Source: Candidatus Eiseniibacteriota bacterium (GTDB lineage Bacteria; Eisenbacteria; RBG-16-71-46; JACRLI01). From it: 64,000 nucleotides of DNA. The stretch covers positions 133,335 to 197,334 of the forward strand of contig JACRLI010000015.1 in NCBI GenBank assembly GCA_016235265.1. The letters run 5' to 3'. Position 1 is the first letter of the stretch; each line of letters starts with the position of its first letter. A model generated the notes under the pieces. It was not told the origin of the DNA and did not search any database. It worked only from the letters and a program-made list of their open reading frames with translations. Positions 16,232 through 56,122 of the stretch are shown here, piece by piece. A program made the translations under genes and the position numbers.

Positions 16232-16235
<4 letters not shown>

Positions 16236-20505: not shown

Positions 20506-20520
20506 GCAATGCCTGTGCCA
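20506..20520 (-). promoter_or_regulatory. Sigma54 -24/-12 promoter upstream of the receiver-cheR-cheY-sigma_r4-AMIN/TPR-HK-RR operon
   Basis: Minus strand reads TGGCAC-AGGCA-TTGC; the in-frame stop of the receiver ORF lies just downstream, so this is the leader. Confidence 0.7.
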
Positions 20521-20666
20521 GATTTCGGGGTTGGGTGCGGGTTTGGAGGAGGGCTGTAACTGCTTGCGCGGCAAGCGGCTCAAATGCAGCGGGGGCGGCC
20601 GGTTTTGCCGCCCCCCGGAAAATGCTTCCGCCCCGGCGGGTGGGACCCGCCCGGGTCGGCAGATTC

Positions 20667-22053
<1,387 letters not shown>

Positions 22054-22079
<26 letters not shown>

Positions 22080-25944: not shown

Positions 25945-25975
25945 CTCCCGCTCCTTGGGGTTTCGGGGTTGCCGG

Positions 25976-32784: not shown

Positions 32785-32812
32785 TTTTCGGCATTACTCG
32801 CAGGAACTTTAG
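32785..32812 (-). promoter_or_regulatory. Sigma28 (FliA) promoter for fliC
   Basis: Minus strand reads TAAAGTT-N-GCCGAAAA with an exact 15-nt spacer between TAAA and GCCGAAAA (consensus TAAA-N15-GCCGATAA); about 140 nt upstream of the fliC ATG. Confidence 0.75.
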
Positions 32813-35829: not shown

Positions 35830-35859
35830 GGTGTTCCTCCTCGATGCGCGCGGCGGCCG

Positions 35860-39529: not shown

Positions 39530-40538
39530 CTCGGCCTCCGTCCGGTCGCCTTTCGTGGCCGGCCGCCTCGCGGCGGGCCAGCTCGTCCAGCGCGTACACC
39601 GTGCGCTCCGCCTCTTCCAGCGTCACCGCGGCCTCGCACGGGAAGCTCAGCGCGCGCCGCAGGTACTCCACCGCGCCGGGAAAGCTCCGCCGCACGTGAG
39701 GATCGTCGGGGTCCAGCCCCAGGGCCAGCCGCAGCTGCGGCCGCGCCACGCGCACGCCGCGCGCGTGCAGCTGGCGCGCCCATGCCGCGTTGGGATAGGC
39801 CGTCGAGCCGAACAGCACCCGCACCGTGTAGCGCGGCCACGTGCCGCGGGTGCCGCGCGCGTACTCGGGCAGGCGGACGCCATCCAGCGGGCCCCAGGCG
39901 GATTCCCAGAGCGCGGCCAGGCGGCGCTGCCCCGCGACGCGCGCGGGAAGGGCCGCCAGGAATTCCTCCAGCGCCGGATCGGCCGGCGCCCCCACCTCAA
40001 CGGAGGGCGGGGGCAGCTTGCGACCCGCCTCCTCCACCGTGCCCGCGTCGGCCGAGGCGATGCGCGCCGCGCGGTCGGGACCGTGCAGCAGCACCGCGTC
40101 GGCGTGGGCCCCCGGAAGGAAGCCCTGGGCCATCGCCCCCAGCGACTCGCGCACCTCCTCGACCACCACCGCGTCACGGCGCCGGGCCAGGGCGGCCAGT
40201 TGCGGTCCGTCCGGCGGCAGGCCGTCCACGTCGGCGCACCACAGGGCCTCGAAGCCCCGGCCTTCGCGGGCCACCGAGGACACATCCAGGCGCCCGGTGT
40301 CGGGATCCACATCCAGCGGGACCACGTCACAACCGCCCCGCCTCAGAGCCTCGGCGGCCTGCGTGCAGCCCCACACCGGCAGCGCCACGCGCGCGCCGGG
40401 CCCCAGGCCCAGCGTGCGCGACAGCGCCTGCGCGGCGGTGCGGAACGGGACCGGTCGGGTCAGCGCGACCACCTCCAGGTGGTCCTCCAGTCCCTCGGGC
40501 AGCCCCGCGGGGCGGATCGGCTGGCGCAGCGCGCTCAC
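39519..40538 (-). CDS. DegT/DnrJ/EryC1-like (PLP-dependent sugar aminotransferase-like) protein, possibly degenerate
   Basis: 339 aa from GTG at 40538 (GTGA overlap); VALPVWGCTQAAEALRRGGCDVVPLDVDPDTGRLD resembles the DegT motif (PSFTF.A...G..PVFVDID..T.NID); assignment is tentative. Confidence 0.45.
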   Translation of the reverse strand: MSALRQPIRPAGLPEGLEDHLEVVALTRPVPFRTAAQALSRTLGLGPGARVALPVWGCTQAAEALRRGGCDVVPLDVDPDTGRLDVSSVAREGRGFEALWCADVDGLPPDGPQLAALARRRDAVVVEEVRESLGAMAQGFLPGAHADAVLLHGPDRAARIASADAGTVEEAGRKLPPPSVEVGAPADPALEEFLAALPARVAGQRRLAALWESAWGPLDGVRLPEYARGTRGTWPRYTVRVLFGSTAYPNAAWARQLHARGVRVARPQLRLALGLDPDDPHVRRSFPGAVEYLRRALSFPCEAAVTLEEAERTVYALDELARREAAGHERRPDGGRDAG

Positions 40539-41515
40539 GAGGCGGCTCTCCAGGCCGCGCCGCGGGCATCGCGGGTTCGGCCCGCGTCCGCGGCGGCCCA
40601 GGCGCGCATCTCGCGCAGCCCTTCCCGGAGCGTCACCGACGGGGCCCAGCGCAGCAGCCGCGCCGCGAGCGAGGGGTCCCCGCGCATGCGGCCGATCTCG
40701 GCCAGCGGCGCGGGGTGGGTGACGAAGGTGTAGCCGACCCCCGCCGACATGGAGCGCCCCAGCTCGGAGAGGCGCGTCTCCTCGCCGGAGGCGGCGTGCA
40801 CCACCGTGCCGTGCACGCGGAGATCCTCGCCCATCTCGGCCAGCAGCCGCGCCACGTCCCGGGCGTGCACGAAGTCGCGGCTCTGACGGCCGTCGCCGTG
40901 GATCTTCACCTTCTCGCCGCGGGCGACGCGGCGGGCGAACGTGGCGATCACGCTGTCGTCCTCCTCCCCTTCGGGAACGGGGCCGTACGCGCCGAACACC
41001 CGGCACACCGAAACCGGCAAACCGTGGGTGTGATCGCAGGACAGCGCCAGCTGCTCGGCCGCCAGGAGCGCCGCGGCGCGCGGTGTGCGCGCCGCGGTGG
41101 GCCAGGACTCCGACTGCTTCTCCCGGCCGCGGTAGGGCTCCAGCACCTCGGAGCTGCCCGCGAGCACCAGCCGCGCCCGGTGCGCCCGGCACGCCTCCAC
41201 CACCTCCAGCGCCTCGCCGACCACGCGGCGGAACGCCTCACGCGGCGACGCGTCCGCGGCGGAGGCACGCGGCACCTGCCAGAAACACACCGCCGGCCGC
41301 TCCGAGAACACCGGCAGCAGCTCCTCGGGGTTGCCCACGGCGCCCGCGCTGAAACCCAGGAATCCCTCCCGGCCCGCCAGCTCCGCGTACCCGCGGGCGG
41401 AGGCCTCCGACCTGCCCAGCACGCGCACCGAGTGTCCGCGCGCCAGCCACTCGGCGACCAGCGCGTGGCCCAGGGCGCCCGAGCCGCCGACCAACGCCGC
41501 GCTCAGGCCGCGCAC
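40535..41515 (-). CDS. NAD-dependent epimerase/dehydratase (SDR family)
   Basis: About 326 aa from GTG at 41515; glycine-rich NAD motif VGGSGALGHALVAEWLARGHSV; epimerase C-terminal region. Confidence 0.65.
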   Translation of the reverse strand: MRGLSAALVGGSGALGHALVAEWLARGHSVRVLGRSEASARGYAELAGREGFLGFSAGAVGNPEELLPVFSERPAVCFWQVPRASAADASPREAFRRVVGEALEVVEACRAHRARLVLAGSSEVLEPYRGREKQSESWPTAARTPRAAALLAAEQLALSCDHTHGLPVSVCRVFGAYGPVPEGEEDDSVIATFARRVARGEKVKIHGDGRQSRDFVHARDVARLLAEMGEDLRVHGTVVHAASGEETRLSELGRSMSAGVGYTFVTHPAPLAEIGRMRGDPSLAARLLRWAPSVTLREGLREMRAWAAADAGRTRDARGAAWRAAS

Positions 41516-44103
41516 GCCTCCGCCTTCCCGGGGCGCGGCGCAGGCCGGGCCCGCAGCGCCTCCTCCAGGCCCTCCACCAGGTCCATCCGGCTTTGGGCGC
41601 GCGCGCGGCGCAGCGCCTCGGCGGTCGCGTCCCGCGCCCCGGCGTAATCGCCCATGCGCGCCAGGAGGTCGGCGCGCCGCAGGGCCGGCGCGAGCTCGCC
41701 GGGCATCAGCTCGCACAGGCGCGCATAGCCGCTGGCCGCCACCGGCAGGTTCCCGTGGGTCTCCGCGAGGCGCGTGGCCTCGGATACCGCCCAGGTGTTG
41801 GCGGGCTCCAGGTTGATCGCCTGCTGGTACTGTCCGACGGCGTCCTGCACCCGCCCGGCGGCCTCCAGCACGCGCCCGCAGGCCACCAGCAGCACGGCGG
41901 GTCGCGGGGTTTCAAGCAACTCCCGCCGCATCAGCTCGCCCGCGGCGCCGAAGTCGCGCATGGCGGCCAGGGAGAGCGCCAGGCCGGACACGGCCCCGGG
42001 CAGGTGCGGATGGGCGCCCAGCACGCGGGCGAAGATTTCCGACGCGGCCTCGGGGGAGTTGGACTCGAGCAGTTCGTGCCCGCGGCTCATGGCGTCGGCC
42101 AGGTGCACCGGATCGCCCAGGTCGCGCTCCTCCCGGGGCCCGTCCGGTCCCAGGCCCAGAGCGGGTCCGAGGAGGCTGGCGATGCGCTCGTCGCCATGCG
42201 CCTCTCGCACCAGCTCGCGCCCCGCGCGCGAAAGCGCCTCCCACGCCTCCTTCGAGTCGTACAGCTCCGCGATGGCGCGGGCGAACCCCTCGGGGTCCGA
42301 TGCGATCCTCGCGTTCCGCCCATCCACCAGGTGCATGCCCTCGGCGCCCACCGGGGTGGTCACGCACGGCAGGCCGCAGCCCAGCGCCATGGCGATCTTG
42401 CCCTTGAGCCCCGCACCGTAGCGCAGCGGGGCGATCGAGACGCGGGCCCCGGAGAGGTACGGGGCCAGGTCGGGAACGTAACCGGTGACCTCGATGTCCC
42501 CTCCGTGGAGCCGCCGCACCGATTCCGGCGGGCGGTCACCCACGATGCGCCAGCGCACGCCGGGCAGCAGTTCGCGCACCCGGGGCCACACCTCGGCGTG
42601 GAACCACGCCACCGCGTCCACGTTGGGCAGGTGGCGGAAGCCCGCCAGGAACACCAGGTCGCGGCGCGCCTCGAAACCGGGCTCGTGCTCGTCCACGTGG
42701 TAGACGTCGGGCACCACGCGCACGTCGCGATCCGGCAGGTGGCGCAGCAGCTCGAGTCGGTCGTCCTCGGTGACGGTCAGCACGGTGTTGGCGCAGCGGT
42801 AGGCCGCCAGTTCCCGGGCCTGCATCTGACGGAACGGCCTCCAGGTCTCCGGGAGGTCCTCCTGGCGCGCGCGGCGGGCGTGCCGCAGGAAATCGAGGTC
42901 CACCGAGTCGATCACGATGCGCGTCCGCGGACTCTCCTGGATCAGCCGGGGAATGAGGCGCAGGGCCGACTCGTAGAACGGCAGCAGCGCGACGTCGTAG
43001 TCGCGACCCGCGAGCAGCGCGCCCATCGCCGCGGAGGGGTCCACCCGCGGCGGGCTGCCCTGCAGCGGGCGGTCCAGCGGGTACACCATCACTCCCGTGG
43101 CGCGCAGCCGCTCCACGTAGGGAGCCAGATCGATGCCTTCGTGCTCCCCGCTGTGCAGGCAGGCCACGGTCACGTGGTGGCCGCGCTCCGCGAGGAGCCG
43201 CACCATGTTGTGGATGCGCTGGAAGCCGGAGGCGCGGTCGAAGAGCGGCGGGATCTCGTGGAACATCAGCACCTGGCGGCCCGAGATGCGGTGCGCCGCG
43301 CGCGCGGTCTCACGCGGGTCGCGGGTCACGACCGGCTGGAGGCGCAGTTCCGCGGTCCACTTCTCGAGGAACTTGGGCCGGTTGACGGCCTGGAACTTCT
43401 TGAATCCGGACTCGGTGTCGCGGCCCGCGGTCACGCCCTCGTGATGCACCACCCGTGCGGCGGGCTGGTAGACCACCCGCAGGCCCTCGCGGCGCGCGGC
43501 GAAACACAGGTCGGTGTCTTCGTAGTAGGCGGGCGCGAAGCGGCGGTCGAAGCCACCCAGCTTCCGGAACAGGCTGGCGCGCGCCAGCAGGCAGGCGCCG
43601 GAGCCGTAGTCCACCTCGCGGACGTAGGCGTACTCGGGAGCCTCGGGATCGCCGCCGCGGCCGTAGTTGCATCCGGTGGCGTCGGAGAAGAGGATGCCGC
43701 CCGCCTCCTGCAGCGTGCCGTCGGTGTTGAGCAGGCGCGCACACACGACTCCCGCGGTGGCGTCGCGCTCGGCGGTATCCACCAGCGCCTCGAGCCAGCC
43801 GGGCGCGGGGAGGGTGTCGTTGTTGAGGAACACCAGGTACTCGCCGCCCGCGACCTCGGCAGCGCGGTTGTTGCCGTCCACGAAGCCGAGGTTCTCCGGG
43901 CTGGAGATCACCTGCATGGCGCCCTCGGGGAGGCTGCCCCGGAACGCCGCCAGCCAATCCCCGGTGCCGTCGGTGGACGCGTTGTCCACCACCACCAGTT
44001 CGTAGAGGCCGGCGGGCGTGACGTCGCGCACCCGCTCCAGGCAGGCGCGGGTGTGCGCGAGGTGGTTGAAACAGACGACCAGGATGCTGGCTTTCGGCGG
44101 CAT
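41503..44103 (-). CDS. Multi-domain glycosyltransferase (GT2 plus GT4-like plus TPR), 866 aa
   Basis: ATG at 44103 with GAGGAG RBS; N-terminal GT2 (ILVVCFN...VVVDNAS...FLNNDT...YYEDTDLCF); central GT-B/GT4-like region (GAGLKGKIAMALGCGLPCVTTPVGAEG); C-terminal TPR. Confidence 0.8.
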   Translation of the reverse strand: MPPKASILVVCFNHLAHTRACLERVRDVTPAGLYELVVVDNASTDGTGDWLAAFRGSLPEGAMQVISSPENLGFVDGNNRAAEVAGGEYLVFLNNDTLPAPGWLEALVDTAERDATAGVVCARLLNTDGTLQEAGGILFSDATGCNYGRGGDPEAPEYAYVREVDYGSGACLLARASLFRKLGGFDRRFAPAYYEDTDLCFAARREGLRVVYQPAARVVHHEGVTAGRDTESGFKKFQAVNRPKFLEKWTAELRLQPVVTRDPRETARAAHRISGRQVLMFHEIPPLFDRASGFQRIHNMVRLLAERGHHVTVACLHSGEHEGIDLAPYVERLRATGVMVYPLDRPLQGSPPRVDPSAAMGALLAGRDYDVALLPFYESALRLIPRLIQESPRTRIVIDSVDLDFLRHARRARQEDLPETWRPFRQMQARELAAYRCANTVLTVTEDDRLELLRHLPDRDVRVVPDVYHVDEHEPGFEARRDLVFLAGFRHLPNVDAVAWFHAEVWPRVRELLPGVRWRIVGDRPPESVRRLHGGDIEVTGYVPDLAPYLSGARVSIAPLRYGAGLKGKIAMALGCGLPCVTTPVGAEGMHLVDGRNARIASDPEGFARAIAELYDSKEAWEALSRAGRELVREAHGDERIASLLGPALGLGPDGPREERDLGDPVHLADAMSRGHELLESNSPEAASEIFARVLGAHPHLPGAVSGLALSLAAMRDFGAAGELMRRELLETPRPAVLLVACGRVLEAAGRVQDAVGQYQQAINLEPANTWAVSEATRLAETHGNLPVAASGYARLCELMPGELAPALRRADLLARMGDYAGARDATAEALRRARAQSRMDLVEGLEEALRARPAPRPGKAEACAA

Positions 44104-44161
44104 GGCTCCTCGCGCGGAAATGGAAGACGGATGGCCGGGCGGGCCGGACATCCTGCGGAGA

Positions 44162-44176
44162 GCAACCGATGTGCCA
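44162..44176 (-). promoter_or_regulatory. Sigma54 -24/-12 promoter for the glycosyltransferase island
   Basis: Minus strand reads TGGCAC-ATCGG-TTGCT (exact consensus), about 58 nt upstream of the 44103 ATG. Confidence 0.75.
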
Positions 44177-44313
44177 TGCGGGAAGGCAATCGAAGCGAGG
44201 GGCTATCTTACGGAATGCCTTGAGGAAGCGCCGGGGCCGGGAAATGGCCACCGGGCGGAACGGAAAAGGGCGCCGGCGGATAAGCCACCGGGCGCCCAGA
44301 ATCTGGCCGAGGA

Positions 44314-44559
44314 TCAGTCCTTCTTGGGTTTCACCTTCCGGAGCACCCGGGCGGCATCCTTGATGTCCAGCGGGGAGGCGTTCGCCGCGCGGCGATTCTC
44401 CTCCTGGATGCGCTCGTAGATCTCCTCGCGGTGAACGATCACCTCGGGCGGAGCTTCGATCCCGAGCTTCACCTGCGTGCCGCGGACTTCGAGGACCGTG
44501 ATTTTCACGTTGTCCCCGATCCGAATGTTCTCGCCCAACTTCCGTGTTAGGACCAGCAT
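44314..44559 (-). CDS. csrA: Carbon storage regulator CsrA (flagellin translational repressor type)
   Basis: 81 aa from ATG at 44559 (GGAGG RBS); [51 protein letters not shown] is the canonical CsrA fold sequence. Confidence 0.93.
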
Positions 44560-44609
44560 CAGTTGCTGCCTCCGCGGCCGGACGCCATCGGGCGCCCGAA
44601 CCCGGCTCA

Positions 44610-45056
44610 TTATCGCACGGTCTGTGTCTCGGAGATAAGCGGAATTTCCGCCCGCACCGGGTAACCGCTCTCGAAGAGGACCACCTGCATACCCTTGTGG
44701 GACTTGGGATTGAGCATGATTGGGCCGCGCATGTTGGCGGTCACATGGGGCTGTCCCGTCCCCACCGAGACGATCACCAGCGGCACGACCGGGTCCTCGG
44801 GCACCGAGCCCAGGGCCCGGCGTTCCACCTCACCCAGGGGCACCACGTACTTCGGGTTGAGCAACAGCGGCGATACCACCGGGAAGCAGATCTCGGGCTC
44901 GTCCACCGCGATCAGCCAGTCGAAGGGCGCGTACTCATCGAGATGCAGGTAACCGAAGCGGCGCAGCTCCTCGAACCCCAGGAGGCCGTGCTTGAACTCG
45001 TACACGGCGCCATCGGGCAGGTCCACCTCGCCGAACTGCGAGTTGTTGAGCTTCAT
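44610..45056 (-). CDS. fliW: Flagellar assembly factor FliW (CsrA antagonist)
   Basis: 148 aa; FliW family ([27 protein letters not shown]...); fliW-csrA adjacency downstream of flgK-flgL as in Bacillus. Confidence 0.88.
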
Positions 45057-45068
45057 GAGCCTTTCCCT

Positions 45069-45995
45069 CTAGCCCAGCAGCTGGCCAAGACCCATCTGCA
45101 GGATCCTGTTGCCCACCGCCAGCGCCTGCTGGTAGATGAGTTGCTCCGCCTGGAGATCCGCGGCGGCGCTCGCCGTGTCGATGTCCTCCACGCGCGAGCG
45201 GTTGCTTTGCAGCACCACCGCCTGGTCCTCGAGTTTCGTCTGGACGTCGTCGAGCCGCTGCCAGCGAGACCCCGCGAGGGCCTCCTGCGCCGACACCTGC
45301 TCGTGGAGCGTCTGCAGCTGCGGGACCAGCGCGCGGACGGCGTTGCCGTCGTTGGCGGCCAGCGCGTCTCGCAACTGGATGAGGCTGGCGAAGTAGTCGA
45401 TCGAGCCCGGGGGCGCGCCCGTGCCCCCGAAGATATCGGCGGCGTTCAGGTTGACCTTGAGGATGTTGCCCTTGTCGATCTGCCGGTTGATGGCGTCCGT
45501 GGTCACGGCCGGGTCAAGGGCCACCGCGGTGATCTTGCCCGACCCGTCCCGGGTGGCCACGAACGGCGGCGTGCTGGTGTGGGTGCCGGCCAGGGTGTAG
45601 CGACTCAGGCTGTGGTCGTTGCCCGTGTCCAGCGCGGTCTCGAGCAGCTGGTCGATTGCCGCCGCCAGCGCCGTGCGGGCCGACGCGGTGTTGGAGTCGT
45701 TGGCGCCGCGCTGGGCGGTCACGATGGCGTCGGCCAGCGTCTTGCCGGCGGCCTTGGCCACCGAGGCGGCCTGTTCCACGATGGTCTTGGCGTCGGAGAC
45801 GTTCGACTGGTACTGCTGGTTGGCGCTCAGCGCGTTGATCGTCGCCGCCACCTGCTGGGCCCCCACGGGGTCGTCGGAGGGCGTGAGGATCCGTTTCCCG
45901 GTGGCGACGACGCGCTGGAGCTCGAACAACCGCTGCTGGTGCGCCTGCAGGTCGCTCAGGAAGAAGTCCGCGTACATCCGGGAACTGATCCGCAT
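45069..45995 (-). CDS. flgL: Flagellar hook-associated protein 3 FlgL
   Basis: 308 aa; flagellin-like N and C helices (QQALAVGNRILQMGLGQLLG). Confidence 0.85.
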   Translation of the reverse strand: MRISSRMYADFFLSDLQAHQQRLFELQRVVATGKRILTPSDDPVGAQQVAATINALSANQQYQSNVSDAKTIVEQAASVAKAAGKTLADAIVTAQRGANDSNTASARTALAAAIDQLLETALDTGNDHSLSRYTLAGTHTSTPPFVATRDGSGKITAVALDPAVTTDAINRQIDKGNILKVNLNAADIFGGTGAPPGSIDYFASLIQLRDALAANDGNAVRALVPQLQTLHEQVSAQEALAGSRWQRLDDVQTKLEDQAVVLQSNRSRVEDIDTASAAADLQAEQLIYQQALAVGNRILQMGLGQLLG

Positions 45996-45997
45996 GA

Positions 45998-47350
45998 CTA
46001 CCTCGCCACCATCGCCAGGATGGTGCTCATCATCGTGTCCACCGCCGTCACCAGCTGGCTGGCGGCCTGGAAGGACTTCTGCGCGGTCAGGAGATGGGTC
46101 ATCTCCTCCTCGTTGTTCACGCCACCCACCGCCTCGCGCTGGTTCTGCATCTGCTGGAGCAGCAGCCTCTGGTTCTGGCTCATGTCGATGGCCTGCGCGC
46201 TGCTCGCGCCCACCGAGCCCACGATGCCCTCGTAGAAGCCGTGGAAGGTGGTGGTCCCCCCCGACATGGTCAGCGTGTCGCGCAGCCCCGCCAGGCGGAG
46301 CGCCAGGCTGTTGTCGCCCGGCGCGCCGGAAGTGCCGGTGTCGATGCGGCCGGGGTTGGCCTCGGTCAGCGGGTCCAGGCCCAGGCCCGCGGCGGTGCTG
46401 CCGCTGAAGATGCTCGCCCCGGTGGGGCCGGTGGACTGGATCGCGTTCACCTGGCTGGCGAAGGTGGCGGCGAGCGTGTCCAGCTGGGTCTTGTACCCGG
46501 GCAGGGTGTTGACCTTGAGCTCCTCCAGGGCCGCGATCTCGCCCCGCAGCACGGGGGCCGAGTTGCCGTCGGTGGTCTGCATGACCATCCGGCCGCCCAC
46601 GTTGGCGACGCCGCTCACGGTGCGAACCTGGTCGCCGTCCACCAGGTTCAGCCCGCCCACGCGGACGGTGACCACCCCGGCGCGGTGCTCGTCGAAGCTG
46701 ATGTCGGCCATGCCGGAGATCTCGTCCAGCAGCATGTCGCGCCGGTCGCGCAGGTCGTTGGGCTGCTCGCCGGCGCTGGTGACCGCCGCGATCTGGGTGT
46801 TGAGGGCGGCGATCTGCTGCAGGTTGCTGTTGAACTTGATCAGGTCGCCCTTGATCTGGCCGTCCACGTTGTCCGAGATGCTCTGGAGCTGGGCGGCAAG
46901 GCCGTGGAAGGTGTCCACGACCGAGCGGGCCTGGTTCATCACCGCCGCCTTGGCGGAGAGGTCCTCCGGGTGGTTGGCGAGCACCTGGTAGGAATCGAAG
47001 AACTTGCCCAGGGTGGCGGAGAGCCCGTTGTCGCTGGGCTCCTTGAACACCGCCTCGAGCTGGCCGAAGACGTTTTCGCGCACTCCCCAGCGGCCCGCGT
47101 TGCTGCTTTGCATGCGGGTCTGCACGTCCGCCAGCGTGTCGCGCATGCGGCGGATCTGCGTGACCGTCACGCCCGTGCCGAGCTGGCCCGGGAAGTAGTC
47201 CACCGGGTCCGTGGCGCCCAGGAGCGCCACCTGGCGCGTGTAGCCCGGGGTGTTGGCGTTGGCGATGTTGTGGCTCACCACGCTCAGCAGATTCTGCTGG
47301 GCCTGAAGGGCGCGGCGGGCGATCTCGAGCTGGGAAATGAGGCCCGACAT
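45998..47350 (-). CDS. flgK: Flagellar hook-associated protein 1 FlgK
   Basis: 450 aa; N-terminal LLSVVSHNIANANTPGYTRQ rod/hook motif and FlgK C-terminal domain. Confidence 0.9.
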   Translation of the reverse strand: MSGLISQLEIARRALQAQQNLLSVVSHNIANANTPGYTRQVALLGATDPVDYFPGQLGTGVTVTQIRRMRDTLADVQTRMQSSNAGRWGVRENVFGQLEAVFKEPSDNGLSATLGKFFDSYQVLANHPEDLSAKAAVMNQARSVVDTFHGLAAQLQSISDNVDGQIKGDLIKFNSNLQQIAALNTQIAAVTSAGEQPNDLRDRRDMLLDEISGMADISFDEHRAGVVTVRVGGLNLVDGDQVRTVSGVANVGGRMVMQTTDGNSAPVLRGEIAALEELKVNTLPGYKTQLDTLAATFASQVNAIQSTGPTGASIFSGSTAAGLGLDPLTEANPGRIDTGTSGAPGDNSLALRLAGLRDTLTMSGGTTTFHGFYEGIVGSVGASSAQAIDMSQNQRLLLQQMQNQREAVGGVNNEEEMTHLLTAQKSFQAASQLVTAVDTMMSTILAMVAR

Positions 47351-47352
47351 GG

Positions 47353-47850
47353 CTAGATCCTCCGGCTCACGATGCGCGGGCCGCCGGCGGATTCAGCCTT
47401 CCCCGCCTCGCCGTAGAACTGGACCTGGCCGGTCTCGCCCAGGATCAGGCGGACTGCGCGGTCGGTCATGTCGAGACTGTTGCGGATCAGCAGCAGGTTC
47501 TGCCCGTTCAGGGTGTGCAGGCGCCCCATCATGTCGCGGAACTCGGTCCGCAGCCGGTCGAGGCGCACCGCCGCCACGCCCAGGGACATCTGGGAGAGCC
47601 GCTCCATGGTGAGCTGCTCGGCGGGGATGCCGGTCTGTTCCGAGATCTTGCACAGGATCCCCGCCCGGCGCTCCGCGAGTTCCTCGACGCGCGAGGCCAC
47701 CGCGCGCATCTCGACCAGTGCCCGGTCCAGCGAGCCCGCGTCACTGGCCACGAGCAGCCGCTGCTCCTCCTGGCTCAGCGTGAACAGGCGCTCGTAGTGG
47801 CGGTACTCTTCCGCCAGGACCTGGCTCAGTTCCTCGAGTAGCAGCTGCAT
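47353..47850 (-). CDS. flgN: FlgN-family flagellar export chaperone
   Basis: 165 aa helical protein directly upstream of flgK-flgL; FlgN-like N-terminal region; GGGAGGGAG RBS. Confidence 0.7.
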   Translation of the reverse strand: MQLLLEELSQVLAEEYRHYERLFTLSQEEQRLLVASDAGSLDRALVEMRAVASRVEELAERRAGILCKISEQTGIPAEQLTMERLSQMSLGVAAVRLDRLRTEFRDMMGRLHTLNGQNLLLIRNSLDMTDRAVRLILGETGQVQFYGEAGKAESAGGPRIVSRRI

Positions 47851-47873
47851 GGGGCTCCCTCCCTCGACAGACA

Positions 47874-47900
47874 GTATCGGCCGCGGACGGCAAAACTTGA
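47874..47900 (-). promoter_or_regulatory. Sigma28 (FliA) promoter for flgN-flgK-flgL-fliW-csrA
   Basis: Minus strand reads TCAAGTTT-N11-GCCGATAC (consensus TAAAGTTT-N11-GCCGATAA; 15-nt spacer), about 24 nt upstream of the flgN ATG. Confidence 0.7.
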
Positions 47901-47961
47901 CCTGTTCCGGCCGGCGCGTAATTCAAGGAATTGCGGGACCGGGGCTTCCGCCCCGCCCGGG

Positions 47962-49242
47962 TCAGGACCGGTCGAGCCGGCCCAGGATCTGGCGGACATA
48001 GCGGCGCGTCTCCGGGTACGGTGGCACGCCGCCGTGGCGCTCCACCGCGGTCGGACCGGCGTTGTAGGCCGCCAGCGCGTGCGTCACGCTCCCGCCGAAG
48101 CGGTCCAGCAGCTGGGCCAGGTAGCGGGCGCCGCCGCGCACGTTCTCCCAGGGATCGAACACATTCTTCACGCCCATGGCTCGCGCGGTGTCGGGCATCA
48201 GCTGCATCAGCCCCGAGGCGCCCTTCGGCGAGACCGCGCGCGGGCGGCCGGCGGACTCGGTGAGCAGGACCGCCTCCAGCAGCCGGGAGTCCACGCCGGT
48301 TTCGTGCGCCGCCCGCAGGATCATGGGCTGCAGCTCCGGCGAGGCGCGGCGGGCACCGGATGCGGCCGCGGCCGCGGCGGTGCGGTCGGCAGGGCCCGGA
48401 CGGGCGGCGGCGCGGACGCGGTGCGCGGGCAGCGTCGCGGTTTCGCGCGGGCCCGCGGATTGGGTCGGAGCTCCGGCGGGCTGGGTGCCCGCGGCCCGGG
48501 AGTCCGGAGCGGCGGGGATGGCCCGCCCGCGCGGCGCGGCGGCCGAAAGGGCCGGAGCCGACTCGATCTCGGCGGCCAGGCTGCCCAGCCCGCCCGGCGC
48601 GGGCGCCGGCGCCGGGGGAATCCCGGCGGCGTGCGCGGCGCGCGGAGCGGAGGGCGAATTCGTGTGCCGGGAAGGCCGTGCCTGCAGGCCGCCCTCCGCG
48701 GACGCGGACGCGGACTGCGCCCGATAGGCCTGGACGCGCACGTCGGCGGGAATCGATACCGGGCCCGCGGCGCTCCCGGAGCACCACGGCAGGGCGTCCG
48801 CCGCGCCGCCCAGGGCCACCGGCGCGGGGGCGGTCGCGCCGTCCGCGCGAGGCAGCGCCACCGGCGCGCCGGCGGTCTCGTCGCCGCCGCGCGGCAGCCG
48901 GATGGGTGCACCGTCTCCGGACCGTTCGGGCTGCGGGCGCATCCGGTCGGCCAGCGTGCGCTCCATCATCGGGGCCACGCCGAAACCGGAGCGCGCGGCC
49001 ACCTTCTCTGCCACCGCCTGGTCCATGAAGCTGCCATACACCTCGTTGTCCATGCCCTTGCCGAACAGCCCGCTGGGCATGGTGGTCCGGCGCATGTCCT
49101 GCAGCACCCGCGCCACCAGCACCGCCTCGAACTGCTGGCAGGTCTTCTTGAGCTTCGCGCGCTGCGCGCCTGCGCGCGCGGCGTCGAGGCCGGGGGCGTC
49201 CACGCGCGCCACCTCGGCGCGCGGCGCGGGGGCGGTGCTCAC
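47962..49242 (-). CDS. flgJ: FlgJ: rod-binding domain fused to an SLT/GH23 lytic transglycosylase domain
   Basis: 426 aa; N-terminal Rod_binding motif (CQQFEAVLVARVLQDMRRT...FGKGMDNEVYGSFMDQAVAEKVA); C-terminal SLT motifs (ESAGRPRAVSPKGASGLMQLMPDTA...AYNAGP); ATGA overlap with flgI. Confidence 0.8.
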   Translation of the reverse strand: MSTAPAPRAEVARVDAPGLDAARAGAQRAKLKKTCQQFEAVLVARVLQDMRRTTMPSGLFGKGMDNEVYGSFMDQAVAEKVAARSGFGVAPMMERTLADRMRPQPERSGDGAPIRLPRGGDETAGAPVALPRADGATAPAPVALGGAADALPWCSGSAAGPVSIPADVRVQAYRAQSASASAEGGLQARPSRHTNSPSAPRAAHAAGIPPAPAPAPGGLGSLAAEIESAPALSAAAPRGRAIPAAPDSRAAGTQPAGAPTQSAGPRETATLPAHRVRAAARPGPADRTAAAAAASGARRASPELQPMILRAAHETGVDSRLLEAVLLTESAGRPRAVSPKGASGLMQLMPDTARAMGVKNVFDPWENVRGGARYLAQLLDRFGGSVTHALAAYNAGPTAVERHGGVPPYPETRRYVRQILGRLDRS

Positions 49243-50390
49243 AGGATGACCAGCTCCGCCTGCAGCGAGCCGGCTTCCTTGAGCGCCTGGAAGATGGCGA
49301 TGAGGTCGCGCGGGGTCACGCCGATGGTGTTGAGCATGCGCGCCAGCGACTCAGGCGTGGCCGCCCCGGGCAGCGCGATGGCGTGCCCGCCCTGCTCCTT
49401 CGCGGTGAGCTCGTCCACCCGCTCCACCACGGTGCGCGAGCTGTCGGAGCCGAAGGGCTCCGGCTGCGAGATCACCGGGGTGCTCTCCTTCACCTCGATG
49501 GTCAGCCCGCCGTGCGCCAGCACCACCGGCAGCAGCCGCACCGCACCGCCCGCGACCACCGTGCCGGTGCGCTCGTTGATCACCACCCGCGCGGGCTGGT
49601 CGGGCTCGACGTCAATCTGCTCCAGGGCCGCGGCGAATTCCGCCTGCCGGGCGCCCCACGTGGAATCCGGGTACGACACCGCCACGGTGCCGGCGTCCCG
49701 GGCCACCGCCAGGGTCGCGCCCAGCCTCTCGTTCACCGCCCGCGCCACGCGCGATGCGGTCAGGAAGTCGGGCTGGTCCAGGACCACCTGCACCCCGCCC
49801 TGGCCCTCGATCTCCATGGGCACCTCGCGCTCCACGAGGGCGCCGGAGGGCACGCGGCCCACCAGCGGGTGGTTCTTCTGCACCGAGTTGCCCCCGCCGC
49901 TGCCCGCCGAGAAACCCCCGATGCTCACGGCCCCCTGGGCCACGGCGTAGACGCGCCCGTCGGCGCCGCGCAGCGGGGTCTGCAGCAGCATCCCGCCCTG
50001 CAGGCTGCTGGCGTCGCCCAGCGACGAAACCGTCACGTCCATGCGGCCGCCGGAGCGCTGGTACGCGCCCAGGTTGGCGGTCACCATGACCGCGGCCACG
50101 TTCTTCACCTTGATCTCGGCGGGCGACAGGTTCACGCCCTGCGCCACCAGCAGGTTGGCCAGCGAGCGCACCGTGAACCCGGTGCCCTGCTTGTCGCCGG
50201 TCCCGTCGAGGCCCACCACCAGGCCGTAGCCCGTGAGCTGGTTCTCGCGCACGCCCTGCAGGTGCGCCACGTCCTTGAGGCGCGCGGCGCGCGCGGGCCC
50301 GCCGCACGCGCACGCGGCCAGGGCGACCAGCAGCACGGCGGTCGCGGCCCGGCCGGCGGGCGGAAGGCGTCTGGAGCTCGGCACGGTCAT
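49239..50390 (-). CDS. flgI: Flagellar P-ring protein FlgI
   Basis: 383 aa from ATG at 50390; signal peptide; FlgI family throughout (VVGLDGTGDK...). Confidence 0.92.
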   Translation of the reverse strand: MTVPSSRRLPPAGRAATAVLLVALAACACGGPARAARLKDVAHLQGVRENQLTGYGLVVGLDGTGDKQGTGFTVRSLANLLVAQGVNLSPAEIKVKNVAAVMVTANLGAYQRSGGRMDVTVSSLGDASSLQGGMLLQTPLRGADGRVYAVAQGAVSIGGFSAGSGGGNSVQKNHPLVGRVPSGALVEREVPMEIEGQGGVQVVLDQPDFLTASRVARAVNERLGATLAVARDAGTVAVSYPDSTWGARQAEFAAALEQIDVEPDQPARVVINERTGTVVAGGAVRLLPVVLAHGGLTIEVKESTPVISQPEPFGSDSSRTVVERVDELTAKEQGGHAIALPGAATPESLARMLNTIGVTPRDLIAIFQALKEAGSLQAELVIL

Positions 50391-50407
50391 GGTCTGCGTC
50401 CCCCCGG

Positions 50408-51019
50408 TCAGAAGATCCAGTTGAGCACGCGCGAGATCAGGCCCTGGCGCTGTGCGGCGGTGTTGGGGCCGTGGCCCTTGTAGGCGATCTTCGCGTCCGC
50501 GAGGTAGGTGGAGAGCACCGTGTTGTCGCCCCTCACGTCCTCGGGGCGCACCGTCGCGGTGATCGTGATCTCCTCGCTGTCGTTGTTCACCCCCACCAGC
50601 CGGTCGCCCTGGATCTGGAGGTTCCCGTTGGGGTCCACCCCCACCACGCGCGCCGTCAGGCGCGCGTTGAGCTTGCTGTTGAGGTCGTTCTTGCCCGAGC
50701 CGTTGAAGTCGTTCTTGGACGATGCCTCGGTCTTGAAGGCCTTCAGGAACCCGAACAGGCCGATGCCCGGGGCCCCGTTGTTGCTGAACTTGCTCTCCTT
50801 GGCCGTCTGCGCGGTGGCCTGGTTGGATCCGCTGGCCGACTCCACGATCAGCACCGTGACCAGGTCCCCCACCCCGCGGGCGCGCCGGTCGGCGAACATG
50901 CCGGGCGCGCCCTCCTTCCACAGCGATTCCGCCGCCGAGGGCCCCGCGAGGCACAGCAGCGCGGCCACCGCCGGGCCGAGCGCGGCGGACGCCGCGAACC
51001 ATGCGTGCTTCGATCGCAT
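50408..51019 (-). CDS. flgH: Flagellar L-ring protein FlgH
   Basis: 203 aa from ATG at 51019 (AAGGGGG RBS); signal peptide; FlgH family (GDLVTVLIVESASGSNQA...LQIQGDRLVGVNNDSEEITITATVRP). Confidence 0.9.
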   Translation of the reverse strand: MRSKHAWFAASAALGPAVAALLCLAGPSAAESLWKEGAPGMFADRRARGVGDLVTVLIVESASGSNQATAQTAKESKFSNNGAPGIGLFGFLKAFKTEASSKNDFNGSGKNDLNSKLNARLTARVVGVDPNGNLQIQGDRLVGVNNDSEEITITATVRPEDVRGDNTVLSTYLADAKIAYKGHGPNTAAQRQGLISRVLNWIF

Positions 51020-51033
51020 CCTGGAGACCCCCT

Positions 51034-51705
51034 TCACGGCACGAGTTCGGCGACGCCGGGGCCGGTCACCCGGACCTTCAGCAGCGTGCCGTTGTTGGGC
51101 CCGCGGGCCCGGATCACGTCGCCCAGCCCGCCTTCCTGCTGCGCCTGGGCCTGGAAGCGAATCACCACGGTGGCGGTCTGGGCGCTCACCGCCAGTGCCG
51201 TCCCGCGCTTCACCACCGGGGCGCGCTCCAGGCATGCCGGGGTGAGCCACGAACCGGCCGCCAGGGTGCGCCGCATGCGCATGCCATCCGCCTGGGCCGG
51301 CCCGGCCACCGGACGCTCGCCCGGCGGCAGGACCTCCACCGAGACATCCACGTCCCCGGGCTGCAGCACCTCGCCGGCGCGCACCGCCCGGAGCACCCGC
51401 AGCCCCGCTCCCACGCGCTCGCAGCGCAGCGCGGCGGTGACCGCGTTCAGGATCCGCCCGTCGCGCAGCACCTGGACGGTGCACGGCACCACTCCCGGGC
51501 GCGGCTCGCCCGTGGGCGGCACCAGCCGCACCCCGGTGGCGCCGGCCGGCACGGGCATCGCCGTCCACGGCCGGGCCAGGCTCCAGCGCAGGGAGTCGCC
51601 GCCCAGGGTGTGCGGCAGCCGCTCGGACGCCAGCCGGACGAGGTCCGTCTCTCCGAGCGTGCCGCTCAGCCCCAGCGCGAGTACCAGGAATGAGACCAGG
51701 TTCAT
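51034..51705 (-). CDS. flgA: Flagellar P-ring assembly chaperone FlgA (SAF domain)
   Basis: 223 aa; signal peptide; C-terminal SAF/FlgA domain (LKVRVTGPGVAELVP). Confidence 0.75.
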   Translation of the reverse strand: MNLVSFLVLALGLSGTLGETDLVRLASERLPHTLGGDSLRWSLARPWTAMPVPAGATGVRLVPPTGEPRPGVVPCTVQVLRDGRILNAVTAALRCERVGAGLRVLRAVRAGEVLQPGDVDVSVEVLPPGERPVAGPAQADGMRMRRTLAAGSWLTPACLERAPVVKRGTALAVSAQTATVVIRFQAQAQQEGGLGDVIRARGPNNGTLLKVRVTGPGVAELVP

Positions 51706-51711
51706 CGCCGC

Positions 51712-52503
51712 CTACCTGCGAATGTTGTTGGCCTGCGCCATCATCTCGTCGGAGGTCTGGATGGACTTGGCATTCACTTCGTAGGCTCGCTGGGCCACGA
51801 TCATGTCCACCATCTCCTCCACCACCTCGACATTCGAACGCTCCAGGAAACCCTGCTGGATGCTGCCCAGGCCGGTCTGGCCCGGCACGCCCGTGACCGG
51901 CTGGCCGCTGCTGGAGGTGGCGGCGTACAGGTTGCCGCCCTCGCTGGAGAGGCCCGCTTCGTTGATGAACCGCGCCATCTCCATCTGGCCCACACGCTGC
52001 GGCTGGTTGCTGCCCGGCACGGTCACCGCGACGGTGCCGTCCTTGGAGATCTGCACCGCGGTGGCCTCCGACGGGATGGTGATCTCGGGCTGCATCGGCA
52101 GGCCCTCGGCGTTAACCAGGCGGCCCTCCTCGTCCAGGCGCAGCGAGCCGTCCCGCGAATACACGGTGATGCCGTCGGGACGGGTGAACTGCAGGAAGCC
52201 GTCGCCCTCGATGAGCAGGTCGAGCGGGTTCCCGGTGGTCTGGCTGTCGCCCTGCGCGAAGATCTTCGGCGAGCCCACCAGGCGCGTGCCGTGCCCGATC
52301 TGCATGGCCACCGGCGTCTGCTGCGCGGTGCCCGGGGCGCCGCCCGCGGCGGGCTTGACGGTCTGGTAGAGCAGGTCCTGGAACTGCACCCGGGACTTCT
52401 TGTAGCCGGTGGTGTTCACGTTCGCCAGGTTGTGCGCGATCGAGTCCACGTAGGTCTGCTGGGCCTGCATGCCCGAGGCAGCGGTGCGCATCGCACGGAT
52501 CAT
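51712..52503 (-). CDS. flgG: Flagellar distal rod protein FlgG
   Basis: 263 aa; MIRAMRTAASGMQAQQTYVDSIAHNLANVNTTGYK; C-terminal LERSNVEVVEEMVDMIVAQRAYE. Confidence 0.93.
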   Translation of the reverse strand: MIRAMRTAASGMQAQQTYVDSIAHNLANVNTTGYKKSRVQFQDLLYQTVKPAAGGAPGTAQQTPVAMQIGHGTRLVGSPKIFAQGDSQTTGNPLDLLIEGDGFLQFTRPDGITVYSRDGSLRLDEEGRLVNAEGLPMQPEITIPSEATAVQISKDGTVAVTVPGSNQPQRVGQMEMARFINEAGLSSEGGNLYAATSSSGQPVTGVPGQTGLGSIQQGFLERSNVEVVEEMVDMIVAQRAYEVNAKSIQTSDEMMAQANNIRR

Positions 52504-52532
52504 GGTGATTCCCTTTCTTCAGTCGGGGCCCG

Positions 52533-53261
52533 CTAGCGGGCGCGGCCGACGTTGTTGATGAGCACCGAGAGGGTGTCGCCCTGGAGCTGCGCGCTCTTCA
52601 TGTTCGACTCGTAGCTCCGGAAGGCGGCCACCATGTCGATCATCTCCTCGACCGGGTTCACATTCGAACCTTCGAGGAACCCCTGTTTCACCGTCGCGCC
52701 CGTGGCGGCGACGGGCTGTCCGGACGAGGCCCACAGGGTGGCGCCTTCGCGCGTCAGCTCCGCACCCTCGGGGAACTTCACCAGGCGCAGCCTGCCGGCG
52801 GGCTGGCCGCCCGTGGTCACCGTGCCGTCGGGCGAGATCGTCACGTCGCCCTCGACGCGGATCGGGCCGCCCTCCCCCAGGACCTGGGAACCGTCGGGCA
52901 GCGACAGCTGGCCCCCGGCGTTCATCGTGAAGTTGCCGGCTCGGGTGTAGCGCTCGCCCGCGGGAGTGCTCACCGCGAAGAAGGCGTCGCCGGTGATGGC
53001 CAGGTCCAGCGGGTTGCCGGTCTGGTCCACCGAACCCGGCCGCATGTCGGGGCGCGTCCGCGGGTCGGCGGCCAGCGACGGCCCGCCGGGCATGGGGGCC
53101 GGCGAGCCACCCGCGGCGGCCTGCTTGAGCACGCTCTGGAAGCTCACCTTGTCCCGCTTGAACCCGGGCGTGAGGGCGTTGGCCAGGTTGTTGGCCAGCG
53201 TTTCCTGCTGCGCGATGCGCGGCAGGATGCCTTCACGAGCCCGACGAAGTCCCTCGATCAC
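52533..53261 (-). CDS. flgF: Flagellar proximal rod protein FlgF
   Basis: About 242 aa from GTG (GGAGGTG about 6 nt upstream); LANNLANALTPGFK and C-terminal LEGSNVNPVEEMIDMVAAFRSYE rod motifs. The long N-terminal extension in the ORF track (to 53597) lacks homology and would bury the sigma54 promoter. Confidence 0.8.
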   Translation of the reverse strand: MIEGLRRAREGILPRIAQQETLANNLANALTPGFKRDKVSFQSVLKQAAAGGSPAPMPGGPSLAADPRTRPDMRPGSVDQTGNPLDLAITGDAFFAVSTPAGERYTRAGNFTMNAGGQLSLPDGSQVLGEGGPIRVEGDVTISPDGTVTTGGQPAGRLRLVKFPEGAELTREGATLWASSGQPVAATGATVKQGFLEGSNVNPVEEMIDMVAAFRSYESNMKSAQLQGDTLSVLINNVGRAR

Positions 53262-53311
53262 GACGTTCACCTCCGCGGCGGCCGGATAGACCTGTCCGGC
53301 AGCCGGAATCG

Positions 53312-53326
53312 CAACGGACGTGCCAC
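53312..53326 (-). promoter_or_regulatory. Sigma54 -24/-12 promoter for flgF-flgG-flgA-flgH-flgI-flgJ
   Basis: Minus strand reads TGGCAC-GTCCG-TTGC (exact consensus), about 50 nt upstream of the flgF start. Confidence 0.72.
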
Positions 53327-53550
53327 GGGCCCGCGAGCGGCCGGGGACGGCCCCGGGCGGCGCGCCCATGTGCCGAATTCGCTGGGAGAGGCGCGGCGGG
53401 GGCGCAGGTGTGGAGGTCCCGGCCCCCGAGGGCGTGGCGGGGCTGTCGGGGCCGCGGGGGCAGGAACAAATTGACCGCGGGCGGCAAATTCTGCCGCCCG
53501 AAGCCCGGCCGGCGCGTGCAATAATGCGAAGCCACGAAACGAGGTCCGGG

Positions 53551-55841
53551 ATGACCAGAACGCGCACCCTGGTATATCCGACAGCGTTCTTCTTCACCGC
53601 CGTGTGGCTGCTCGCCGTGGTGCAGGGCTTTCGACAGCCCTACACCGGGGCGGCGGTGCAGAGCGGCCGCGTGGACATGGTGGAGCCCGGCGGGCCCGCG
53701 GACCTCGCGGGGGGCACCCCCCGGCGCGCGAGATCACCTGGCAGGCGCTGCTGGCCCTCTCCGGCCTGGCGCTCATCCTGCTGGGCCTGTGGGTCCACCG
53801 CCGCAGGCCGCAGCCCGCGACCGCGCTGTTCCTGCTGCTGTCGGTGCTCCTGGCGCTCATCTTCAAGCCCTCCCTGCAGCTGCCCCCCGAGGTGCCCGCC
53901 CCCCTGGAGGAGTGGGTGCTGCAGGCGGCGCAGCTGGGCTTCCCGCCCCTGCTGATCCACTTCGTGATGCTCTTCCCGCCGCGCGCCGGCGGGCCGCAAC
54001 CCTCGAGGCGGCGCCTGGCCGCGGTGTACCTGCCGGCGGTGGCGCTGCTGCTGGTGAACGGCAGCGTGGCCACGGCGGCGCTGGCCGCCCCGGGGGAGTA
54101 CCACCGGGCGCTGGAGGCGGCCCAGGGGGTGGCGGCGCTCTACTTCCTGGGCGCGCTCGCGGTGGCATCGGCGCTGCTGCTGCGCACCTACCGGCGCGTG
54201 CGCACCACGGTGGAGCGCAACCGGATGCGGGTGGCGCTGTGGGGAACGCTGGTGGGCCTGCTGCCGCCGGCTTTGACCACGGTGGCCCTGATGTGGGTGC
54301 CGCTGTCGGCGGTGCCTTGGAGCCGCTACGCCTCGCTCTCGCTGTTGCTGGTCCCGGCCGCGTTCGCCGACGCCGCGGTGCGGCACCGGCTCTTCGATTT
54401 CGAGGTGGCGTTCAAGCGGGGCCTGGTCTACAGCACGCTGGCCGCCGCCTCGCTGGCGGTGTACGTGCTGCTGGCGCAGGTCGCCGGGCGGTGGCTCTCG
54501 CGGGCCACGCACCTGCCGGACCTGGTGTGGCCGGCGCTCTCGGTGTTCGCCGCCGGGCTGCTGTTCGCGCCCGCGCGGGCGCGGCTCTCCACCGCGGTGG
54601 ACCAGCTCTTCCTGCGCGGCCCATTCGACTACCGCGCGGCGCTGCTGCGCCTCACCCACGAACTGGCCCGCGTGCCCACCGTGGACGCCCTGATGGAGCG
54701 GGGCTTCCCGGGCCTGCTGGCGGCGCTGGGGCTCAAGCAGCTGGCCTTCTATCATGGAAGCGCGCCCGAAGCGCTGCGGCTGCGCCGCGCCGTGCCGGCG
54801 GACGCCGACCCCCCCGCCGAACTGTGCGTGCCCCCGGACTGCGCGCTGGCCGGCCTGGATGAGGCGGCGCCGTGGGACCCCGACACCGCCGCATGGAGCG
54901 GGTTGCCTTTGGAATCCCGGCGCGCGCTCGACGCCATGCGCGCCTGCGCCCTGGCGCCGCTGCGCCTCGATGGGCGGCTGGTGGGGCTGTGGGTGCTGGG
55001 ACCTCGCGCCGCGGGCCCGTGGTACGAGCCCGCCGATCTCGAGTTGCTCACCGGGCTTTCCGACCAGACGTCGCGCGCGCTGGACCGCGAGAGGGCGCAG
55101 CGGGAGGCCGAGACCCAGGCCCACCTCAAGCGCGAGTTGCTGGTGGCCCGGCACCTGCAGCGCATGCTGGTGCCGGCCCACACCCCGATCTACCCCACCT
55201 TGGACCTGGCCAGCGCCAGCCTGCCCTGCGAAGAGGTCGGGGGCGACTACTTCGATTTCATGCCGCAGGGCGACCACCGCTTCGGGTTCGTGATCGCCGA
55301 CAGTTCCGGCAAGGGAGTGCCCGCCGCGCTCCTGATGGCCGGCCTGCAGGCCCAGTTCCGCGCCGAGGCGCCGCGCCATCCCAGCCCCGGGGAGCTGCTG
55401 GCCCTGCTCAACGCCCGGGTGCGCCCGGAGGACGATCCCCGCAGGTACGTGGCCCTCTTCTACGCGCAGGTGGACGTGCGCGAGCGGCGCATCCGCTACG
55501 CCAACGGCGGGCACCCGCCGCCCATGCTGCTGCGCGCCAGCGGCTCGGTGGAACGGCTGAACGAGGGCGGCCTGCTGCTGGGAGTGTCCCCGGATGCCGG
55601 CTACCCGGAGGGCGAACTACAGCTGGAGCGCGGCGACCTGCTGGTGTTCTACACCGACGGGGTGGTCGAAGAACGCTCGGGCGACGATTTCTATGGCGAC
55701 GGCCGGCTGGAATCCGCCCTGGCCCGGCACCGCCACCTGCGCGCCCACCGCCTGGTGGACCGGGTCATCGAAGACGTGCAAGCTTTTAGCGGTGCGCCAC
55801 TTGGAGACGACGTCACGGTCGTGGCGATGAAGTTCCTCTAA
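53551..55841 (+). CDS. Membrane-bound sensor phosphatase: N-terminal TM/PDZ-like segment, about 8 TM helices, GAF, PP2C (SpoIIE-type). Reading frame broken in a G6-CA-C6 tract near 53709-53722
   Basis: ATG at 53551 (GAGG RBS) opens MTRTRTLVYPTAFFFTAVWLLAVVQGF...VEPGGPADLAGG. The main ORF (track 53604..55841) continues in a different frame with ...PPAREITWQALLALSGLALILLGLWV. One extra C in the C6 run joins them seamlessly. C-terminal PP2C motifs (GGDYFDF...IADSSGKGVPAALLM...FYTDGVVE). Confidence 0.65.
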
Positions 55842-56122
55842 GCTCTCCGGCCCCCAATCCCCGTTGGCCCCATCCATGCAATCCCCCCTTCAGAGTCCGG
55901 TGCTTTCTGCCGATACCCCAGGTGACGCCCCCGGTCGCATTGCGCCGGCACCCTGGCCAATGGAGGTGACGCTCAACCCGGAAGGCGAAGCCGGTAGACT
56001 ACCGGTCCTCTGCCACGGCCCCAACCGAAACCGGACCCGCCTCACCTCGCCTGGACCCCTGCGACGGCGGGCCCCTCGAGCAGCCTGGGACACGGGTGAA
56101 GAGCCCGTCCCTGGAGGGAACC

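Follow-up and report, generated by a model that had tools for sequence, protein, structure and literature searches.

Which promoter drives the rod and ring genes of the flagellum in Candidatus Eisenbacteria, and where does the first of these genes, flgF, begin? Both parts of the question arise at one place in the 64-kb stretch of DNA analyzed here (the window; 72.5% G+C). Upstream of the probable flgF start, a sequence resembling a sigma-54 promoter lies within a reading frame that stays open for more than a hundred codons. Either this longer frame is the gene and the promoter-like motif is part of its coding sequence, or flgF is short and the motif lies in intergenic DNA, ahead of an operon. 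An earlier note on this DNA, made from the sequence, had argued for the second reading.

Start codon of flgF

The gene for the proximal rod protein FlgF (52533-53261, minus strand) encodes 242 residues when read from the GTG at 53261-53259. This translation opens with V/M-I-E-G-L-R-R-A, matches Pfam rod-protein models, scores 196 bits against TIGR02490 (above the curated equivalog cutoff of 178.5) and is 100% identical to a deposited NCBI protein, P0001, of a Candidatus Eisenbacteria MAG (242 aa). Eleven FlgF orthologues, for which the earlier note had suggested an alignment of N-termini, align from their first residue (M-I/L-E-G-L), and position 1 of the Flg_bb_rod profile falls on residue 5 of the short FlgF, exactly as in FlgG. 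The GTG is preceded, at a distance of 8 nt, by a Shine-Dalgarno sequence, GGAGG (53270-53274, minus strand), which is invariant in relatives, and both elements are found at the same aligned place there. The start codon with a GGAGG-type ribosome-binding site that the note had proposed is thus confirmed.

The longer frame, which starts at GTG 53597 and comprises 354 codons (52533-53597), contains the sigma-54 motif and, as the note had pointed out, would bury it in coding sequence. That this frame encodes the real FlgF is hardly credible. Its 120 best homologues are 198-281 residues long (mostly ~240), cover at most 70% of the ORF and only residues from ~113 on, so the extension is present in none of them. 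Position 13 of Flg_bb_rod corresponds to residue 129 of the long ORF, i.e. the rod domain starts where the short protein does and the extra N-terminus has no rod homology, again as had been claimed. Within flgF, G+C content varies with codon phase (0.95/0.55/0.62), whereas it is flat over 53320-53500 (e.g. 0.88/0.85/0.75 and 0.70/0.70/0.62), a segment with no codon periodicity. Apart from the frame being open, the longer ORF is favored by a high third-position G+C content at 53560-53680. However, its upstream end is antisense to the first codons of a divergent phosphatase gene (ATG 53551), whose first 54 residues match those of relatives, and the third codon positions of the two frames coincide, which would account for the signal equally well. 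Judged from these sequence features, the long ORF is an artefact of high G+C content.

The divergent gene (53551-55841, plus strand) encodes a membrane GAF/SpoIIE (PP2C) phosphatase similar at its N-terminus to GAF/SpoIIE phosphatases of 805-807 residues in relatives. Given its ATG and the short flgF start, the intergenic region spans 53262-53550 (289 bp). The phosphatase frame is broken near 53712-53721, where ~45 codons fewer than in relatives are followed by a change of frame, and continues in the frame of ORF 53604-55841. The break reflects either a deletion with a frameshift, which would make the gene a pseudogene, or an assembly error.

A probable sigma-54 core upstream of flgF

The minus strand of the intergenic region carries a sigma-54 -24/-12 core, TGGCACGTCCGTTGC (53311-53325), which matches TGGCAC-N5-TTGC and consists of TGGCAC (53325-53320), GTCCG (53319-53315) and TTGC (53314-53311). 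A spacer of 49 nt separates TTGC from GTG 53261, in agreement with the ~50 nt given for TGGCAC-GTCCG-TTGC in the earlier note. The note had called the promoter exact, which is true of the core: its GG and GC doublets show the canonical sigma-54 spacing, and the G that follows TGGCAC agrees with the extended consensus. It is not true of the base 3' of TTGC, which is G instead of the consensus A/T, nor of the weakly conserved flanking positions, which differ from the extended consensus.

Sigma-54 promoters have an established geometry, in which transcription starts ~12 nt downstream of the GC. Applied to this core, it places the predicted start region at 53296-53301 (minus strand), and transcription of the flgF operon probably begins near 53299. 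The trinucleotide CGG at this very position (53296-53298) does not vary among the six flgF leaders that were aligned, and the same holds for T 53290, C 53289 and A 53287 (all minus strand). On the same strand, 36 nt separate TTGC from GGAGG. A hairpin predicted in the leader is no more stable than those of shuffled sequence (z = -0.30), and therefore no structured or CsrA-bound leader is claimed; no known RNA family from Rfam is found anywhere in the window.

The exact TGGCAC-N5-TTGC pattern is present four times in the window against 0.13 expected (sd 0.37) from 100 dinucleotide-preserving shuffles, none of which reached four copies. This ~30-fold enrichment is strand-biased: like essentially the whole flagellar cluster, the four copies are without exception on the minus strand, and each is closely followed by flagellar or flagellum-linked genes. 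The other three copies precede flgB (14757-14771), a gene for a CheY-like regulator (20506-20520) and a gene for a large glycosyltransferase adjoining the flagellin locus (44162-44176). The flgB, glycosyltransferase and flgF copies are located 30-58 nt upstream of plausible starts; for the fourth copy, that of the CheY-like regulator, no canonical start codon can be placed. Between 44177 and 53310 there is at most one copy of the motif, even with one mismatch allowed.

Five further distinct flgF loci of relatives (L001, L003, L004, L095 and L096), the FlgF proteins of which are 63-72% identical, were compared with the window. All five carry TGGCAY-N5-TTGC at 47-99 nt upstream of the flgF start. 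When the six loci are aligned, 11 of the 15 bases of the motif never vary, versus a mean column identity of 56%; GGAGG and the start codon are conserved as well, in intergenic DNA that otherwise aligns poorly. The three loci that are long enough to show it retain both the divergent phosphatase and the flgF-G-A-H-I order. No close Eisenbacteria relatives were present among the matches listed in a scan of genome contigs (best identity 45%), whose flgF loci were used only as a cross-phylum sample, and a scan of metagenome contigs yielded no close relative.

Could the motif be a chance or vestigial match, with flgF transcribed from a different promoter, of sigma-70 or sigma-28 type, in the 289-bp region? 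G+C-rich words are common in a genome of 72.5% G+C, the pattern with one mismatch allowed is not enriched in the window (6 seen versus 4.78 expected), and sigma-54 dependence in this uncultured MAG is predicted from sequence. The exact core, however, is both enriched and strand-biased, and is retained in five diverged relatives in which its surroundings are not. Moreover, no sigma-70-like promoter was detected within 44000-54000, the window scan found no sigma-28 pattern upstream of flgF, and read-through into flgF is ruled out by the divergent orientation of the upstream gene. A chance or vestigial motif is accordingly very improbable, and the sequence evidence makes it highly likely that the core is a functional sigma-54 (RpoN) promoter driving flgF-flgG-flgA-flgH-flgI-flgJ. 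The rpoN gene is absent from the 64-kb window.

An ftr-like palindrome upstream of the promoter

The five-way alignment of flgF loci contains a second conserved island, the perfect palindrome GGCGGCA-GAATT-TGCCGCC (53480-53498, not assigned to a strand). It is a candidate enhancer that matches a published motif: the ftr site of FlbD in C. crescentus is CCCGGCAxxxxxTGCCGGG, and the site of D. vulgaris DVU1063 is GGCAxxxxTGCC (PMC3333781). The distance from the center of the palindrome to the -24 GG is 165 bp in the window and 164 bp in each of L001, L003 and L004, and the DNA between the two elements hardly aligns. Copies with one or two mismatches are found before the flgB promoter (14865-14883 and 14887-14905) and before the CheY-like promoter (20594-20612), so that several sigma-54 promoters of the same genome carry ftr-like palindromes, two of them in the case of flgB. 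The motif at 44162-44176 has no ftr-like site upstream.

Three of the eight matches to CGGCA-N5-TGCCG in the window (at most one mismatch) are located within 200 bp upstream of sigma-54 motifs, the chance of which is ~1e-4 by our own binomial arithmetic. G+C-rich palindrome arms are not rare in this genome, and a looser search with three mismatches allowed shows no enrichment in the window (33 matches versus 33.7 expected). The significance of the palindrome therefore rests on its perfect match and near-perfect copies, its position and its conservation. One palindrome match, at 47886-47901, was rejected as an enhancer, being part of a sigma-28-like promoter described below. A weak IHF-like word, GTCAATTTGTTC, adjoining the flgF palindrome was dropped as unconvincing, and no IHF-like site was identified between the candidate enhancer and the flgF promoter.

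Of the 22 palindromes of the form GGCA-N5-TGCC in the cross-phylum sample of 80 flgF loci, 14 are found between 100 and 300 nt upstream of flgF, which is ~10 times the background density. In many of these loci, flgF is also preceded at 25-100 nt by sigma-54-like motifs, with TTGA or TTGT as the -12 element in Rhodothermales and Calditrichota. A pattern with four intervening nucleotides, GGCAA-N4-TTGCCGCC, gave no relevant match, its spacing being wrong; the correct spacing between GGCAA and TTGCC is N3, equivalent to GGCA-N5-TGCC. An ftr-like GGCAA-N3-yTGCC is present upstream of flgF in five loci of Rhodothermales/Bacteroidota (L016, L018, L019, L025 and L035) and in two of Calditrichota and relatives (L007 and L008). 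There it is found ~100-150 nt upstream of the -24/-12-like motifs with TTGA or TTGT, the region involved extending from ~30 to ~260 nt before flgF. In the five Rhodothermales/Bacteroidota loci the palindrome is followed by a conserved word, GGAAAA.

The palindrome is located only 53 nt upstream of ATG 53551, and the divergent arrangement of the phosphatase gene and flgF is conserved. It might thus be an operator or promoter element of the phosphatase gene instead of an enhancer of flgF. Going by the title of a 1994 report by Benson et al., FlbD is said to be both an activator and a repressor at ftr sites, which would fit such a function. However, palindromes of the same type precede the sigma-54 promoters of flgB and of the CheY-like gene, neither of which has a divergent neighbor; unrelated phyla have the palindrome upstream of flgF as well; and its distance to the -24 element is a constant 164-165 bp. 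An exclusive role in phosphatase expression is improbable on these grounds, and a dual role of the palindrome, serving the phosphatase gene as well as flgF, is possible. We favor its reading as an enhancer of flgF.

Candidate activators and proposed mechanism

The window encodes two candidate activators, EBP1 (14820-16235, minus strand) and EBP2 (20667-22079, minus strand), which have the same architecture and are 42% identical. Each consists of a receiver, a sigma-54-type AAA+ domain and a helix-turn-helix (Response_reg, Sigma54_activat, AAA_lid and HTH_8). The sigma-54-contacting GAFTGA loop, ELFGYEKGAFTGA, is present in both, and their receivers possess the normal acidic residues (DD...D). 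The EBP1 gene is adjoined by the gene for its kinase, HK1 (16232-17380), and the EBP2 gene by that for HK2 (22054-23475). Neither activator reaches any NCBIfam equivalog cutoff, including those of FlbD, FlgR and NtrC (for the FlbD model, EBP1 and EBP2 score 373 and 296 bits versus a cutoff of 750), and neither is therefore named as the palindrome-binding protein.

These elements can be combined into a mechanism in which sigma-54 dependence, the transcription start, the identity of the activator and DNA looping are taken from the established behavior of sigma-54 systems. Sigma-54 RNA polymerase would form a closed complex with the -24 GG and -12 GC of the core at 53311-53325. An NtrC-family enhancer-binding protein, EBP1 or EBP2, would bind the FlbD/ftr-type palindrome at 53480-53498, loop out the ~165 bp of DNA in between and open the promoter by ATP hydrolysis. 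Transcription would begin near 53299 and run through flgF-flgJ, and the ~38-nt leader, which carries GGAGG, would allow translation from GTG 53261. The late genes flgN-K-L-fliW-csrA would probably be expressed mainly from a sigma-28 promoter of their own, with read-through being possible, and the transcription unit would end at a hairpin after csrA.

Probable extent of the operon

On the minus strand, flgF is followed by flgG, which encodes the distal rod protein (51712-52503; Pfam Flg_bb_rod, D1 and Flg_bbr_C), flgA for the P-ring chaperone (51034-51705; ChapFlgA and SAF), flgH for the L-ring protein (50408-51019, likely start ATG 51019; FlgH), flgI for the P-ring protein (49239-50390, likely start ATG 50390; FlgI, E = 5e-126) and flgJ (47962-49242), the product of which combines a rod-binding domain with an SLT lytic transglycosylase domain (Pfam Rod-binding and SLT). 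The gene order given in the earlier note is therefore correct, and no gap from flgF to flgJ exceeds 29 nt. The same strand continues with flgN (47353-47850), flgK (45998-47350), flgL (45069-45995), fliW (44610-45056) and csrA (44314-44610), all identified by Pfam. The csrA gene is followed by a hairpin that resembles a terminator, with a G+C-rich stem of 12 bp and UUUU behind it (44264-44297, minus strand); its z-score is only -1.7, and its assignment as a terminator is suggestive.

A sigma-28 (FliA)-like promoter, TCAA-N15-GCCGATAC (47874-47900, minus strand), lies in the 111-nt gap between flgJ and flgN. It raises the question of whether flgF to csrA form a single transcript of ~9 kb (about 11-12 genes) made from the sigma-54 promoter, to which the sigma-28-like match would be irrelevant. 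All of these genes are on one strand with gaps of at most 29 nt, except that before flgN, and there is no convincing terminator after flgJ, the first terminator-like hairpin being the one after csrA. However, the sequence before flgN fits the FliA consensus, its pattern (TMAA-N15-GCCGATA) is found three times in the window versus 0.2 expected, with another copy before flagellin, and late expression of flgKL and flgN is usually from sigma-28 (PMC7064773). We consider a single transcript possible, if somewhat doubtful, and prefer an internal sigma-28 promoter, which can coexist with read-through. With this promoter before flgN and a hairpin only after csrA, flgJ is the likely, not proven, end of the operon.

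The flagellin match to the sigma-28-like pattern is at 32786-32811 (minus strand), with the gene at 31804-32643. A further match, at 55890-55915 (plus strand), precedes a gene of the Exo_endo_phos family.

Relation to known flagellar systems

The closest parallel in gene arrangement is Vibrio cholerae, where the flgFGHIJ promoter is FlrBC- and sigma-54-dependent; FleSR of Pseudomonas and FlgSR of Campylobacter are analogous systems (PMC7064773). As in V. cholerae, a sigma-54 promoter is located directly upstream of flgF and followed by rod, ring and flgJ genes, a second one is present at flgB, pairs of a kinase and a receiver-AAA+-HTH activator (HK1/EBP1 and HK2/EBP2) are encoded among the flagellar genes, and sigma-28-type promoters are found at flagellin and late genes. 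Unlike in V. cholerae, the Eisenbacteria operon includes flgA, its flgJ is of the SLT type, flgN-K-L-fliW-csrA are located behind it on the same strand, and an FlbD/ftr-type sequence is the candidate enhancer. The flgB promoter here also precedes fliE/F/G/H/I/J, and the early and rod classes are therefore not visibly separated. The host, too, is different, being a member of an uncultured candidate phylum in which the system is known from sequence alone.

The palindrome itself, CGGCA-N5-TGCCG, resembles the sites of C. crescentus FlbD (ftr) and D. vulgaris DVU1063. Like the ftr sites, it is found ~100-190 bp from sigma-54 flagellar promoters, with several instances in the regulon. The proteins acting on these sites differ from the candidates in the window. 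FlbD has FliX as its partner. The receivers of FlbD and DVU1063 are degenerate, and neither protein has a cognate kinase (PMC3333781, PMC7064773), whereas EBP1 and EBP2 retain the acidic receiver residues, adjoin kinase genes and score far below the FlbD equivalog cutoff. With cognate kinases and ordinary receivers, the system is therefore not a member of the FlbD/FliX type. Functionally, its sequence suggests an ftr-type site that serves a two-component activator. Compared to sigma-54 promoters in general, the locus has the expected TGGCACG-N4-TTGC with canonical GG/GC spacing, an upstream candidate enhancer and GAFTGA activators, and departs from them in the G after TTGC and in having no identified IHF-like site.

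The combination of a sigma-54 core with an ftr-type palindrome before rod and ring genes is familiar flagellar control, not a new one. We found no published work on flagellar regulation in Eisenbacteria, which to our knowledge is a candidate phylum without a cultured member. The present analysis establishes where flgF starts and how its operon is built in this phylum, and suggests that the sigma-54/enhancer/sigma-28 hierarchy, like the FlbD-type enhancer word, is found far outside Proteobacteria. These results are of use for annotation and comparative regulon reconstruction and leave the general view of flagellar regulation unchanged. A bolder and, taken as a whole, rather unlikely proposal is that an ftr palindrome and a sigma-54 promoter before flgF form an ancient module common to Alphaproteobacteria, Bdellovibrionota, Rhodothermota, Calditrichota and Eisenbacteria, which in Eisenbacteria would be read, at a fixed 164-165 bp, by a kinase-controlled activator and not by FlbD/FliX. 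Such a module might be bidirectional, activating flgF and controlling the conserved divergent PP2C phosphatase gene.

Other candidate sigma-54 loci and neighboring genes

The label of a second sigma-54-dependent operon, which the earlier note had given to flgF-flgJ, appears fair because another sigma-54 motif precedes flgB (14757-14771; flgB GTG 14726). The two tandem palindromes of this promoter lie over the 3'-terminal part of the EBP1 gene. The promoter is followed by an operon that includes flgC, fliE, fliF-G-H-I-J, flgD, flgE, motAB and fliLMN, and the early and rod genes thus appear to share one sigma-54 promoter at flgB.

The gene behind the motif at 20506-20520 encodes a CheY-like receiver (20072-20500, minus strand). 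Its first canonical start, GTG 20356, would remove the first receiver strand (RVLIVEDE), and no in-frame ATG, GTG or TTG is found upstream of this GTG. A non-canonical start or a sequence error is therefore likely, and translation possibly starts at a CTG that shortly precedes the RVLIVEDE codons.

The motif at 44162-44176 precedes three very large glycosyltransferase and TPR genes and an aminotransferase-like gene (32938-44103, minus strand). This cluster adjoins flagellin, fliS, fliD and flaG. Plausibly, it is a sigma-54-controlled island for flagellin glycosylation. Elsewhere inside the flagellar cluster, a STAS-domain protein and a second GAF/SpoIIE phosphatase are encoded at 25624-27726 (minus strand) and are accompanied by HDOD and HEAT-repeat genes. 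The STAS and SpoIIE genes could constitute a partner-switching module linked to the regulation of motility.
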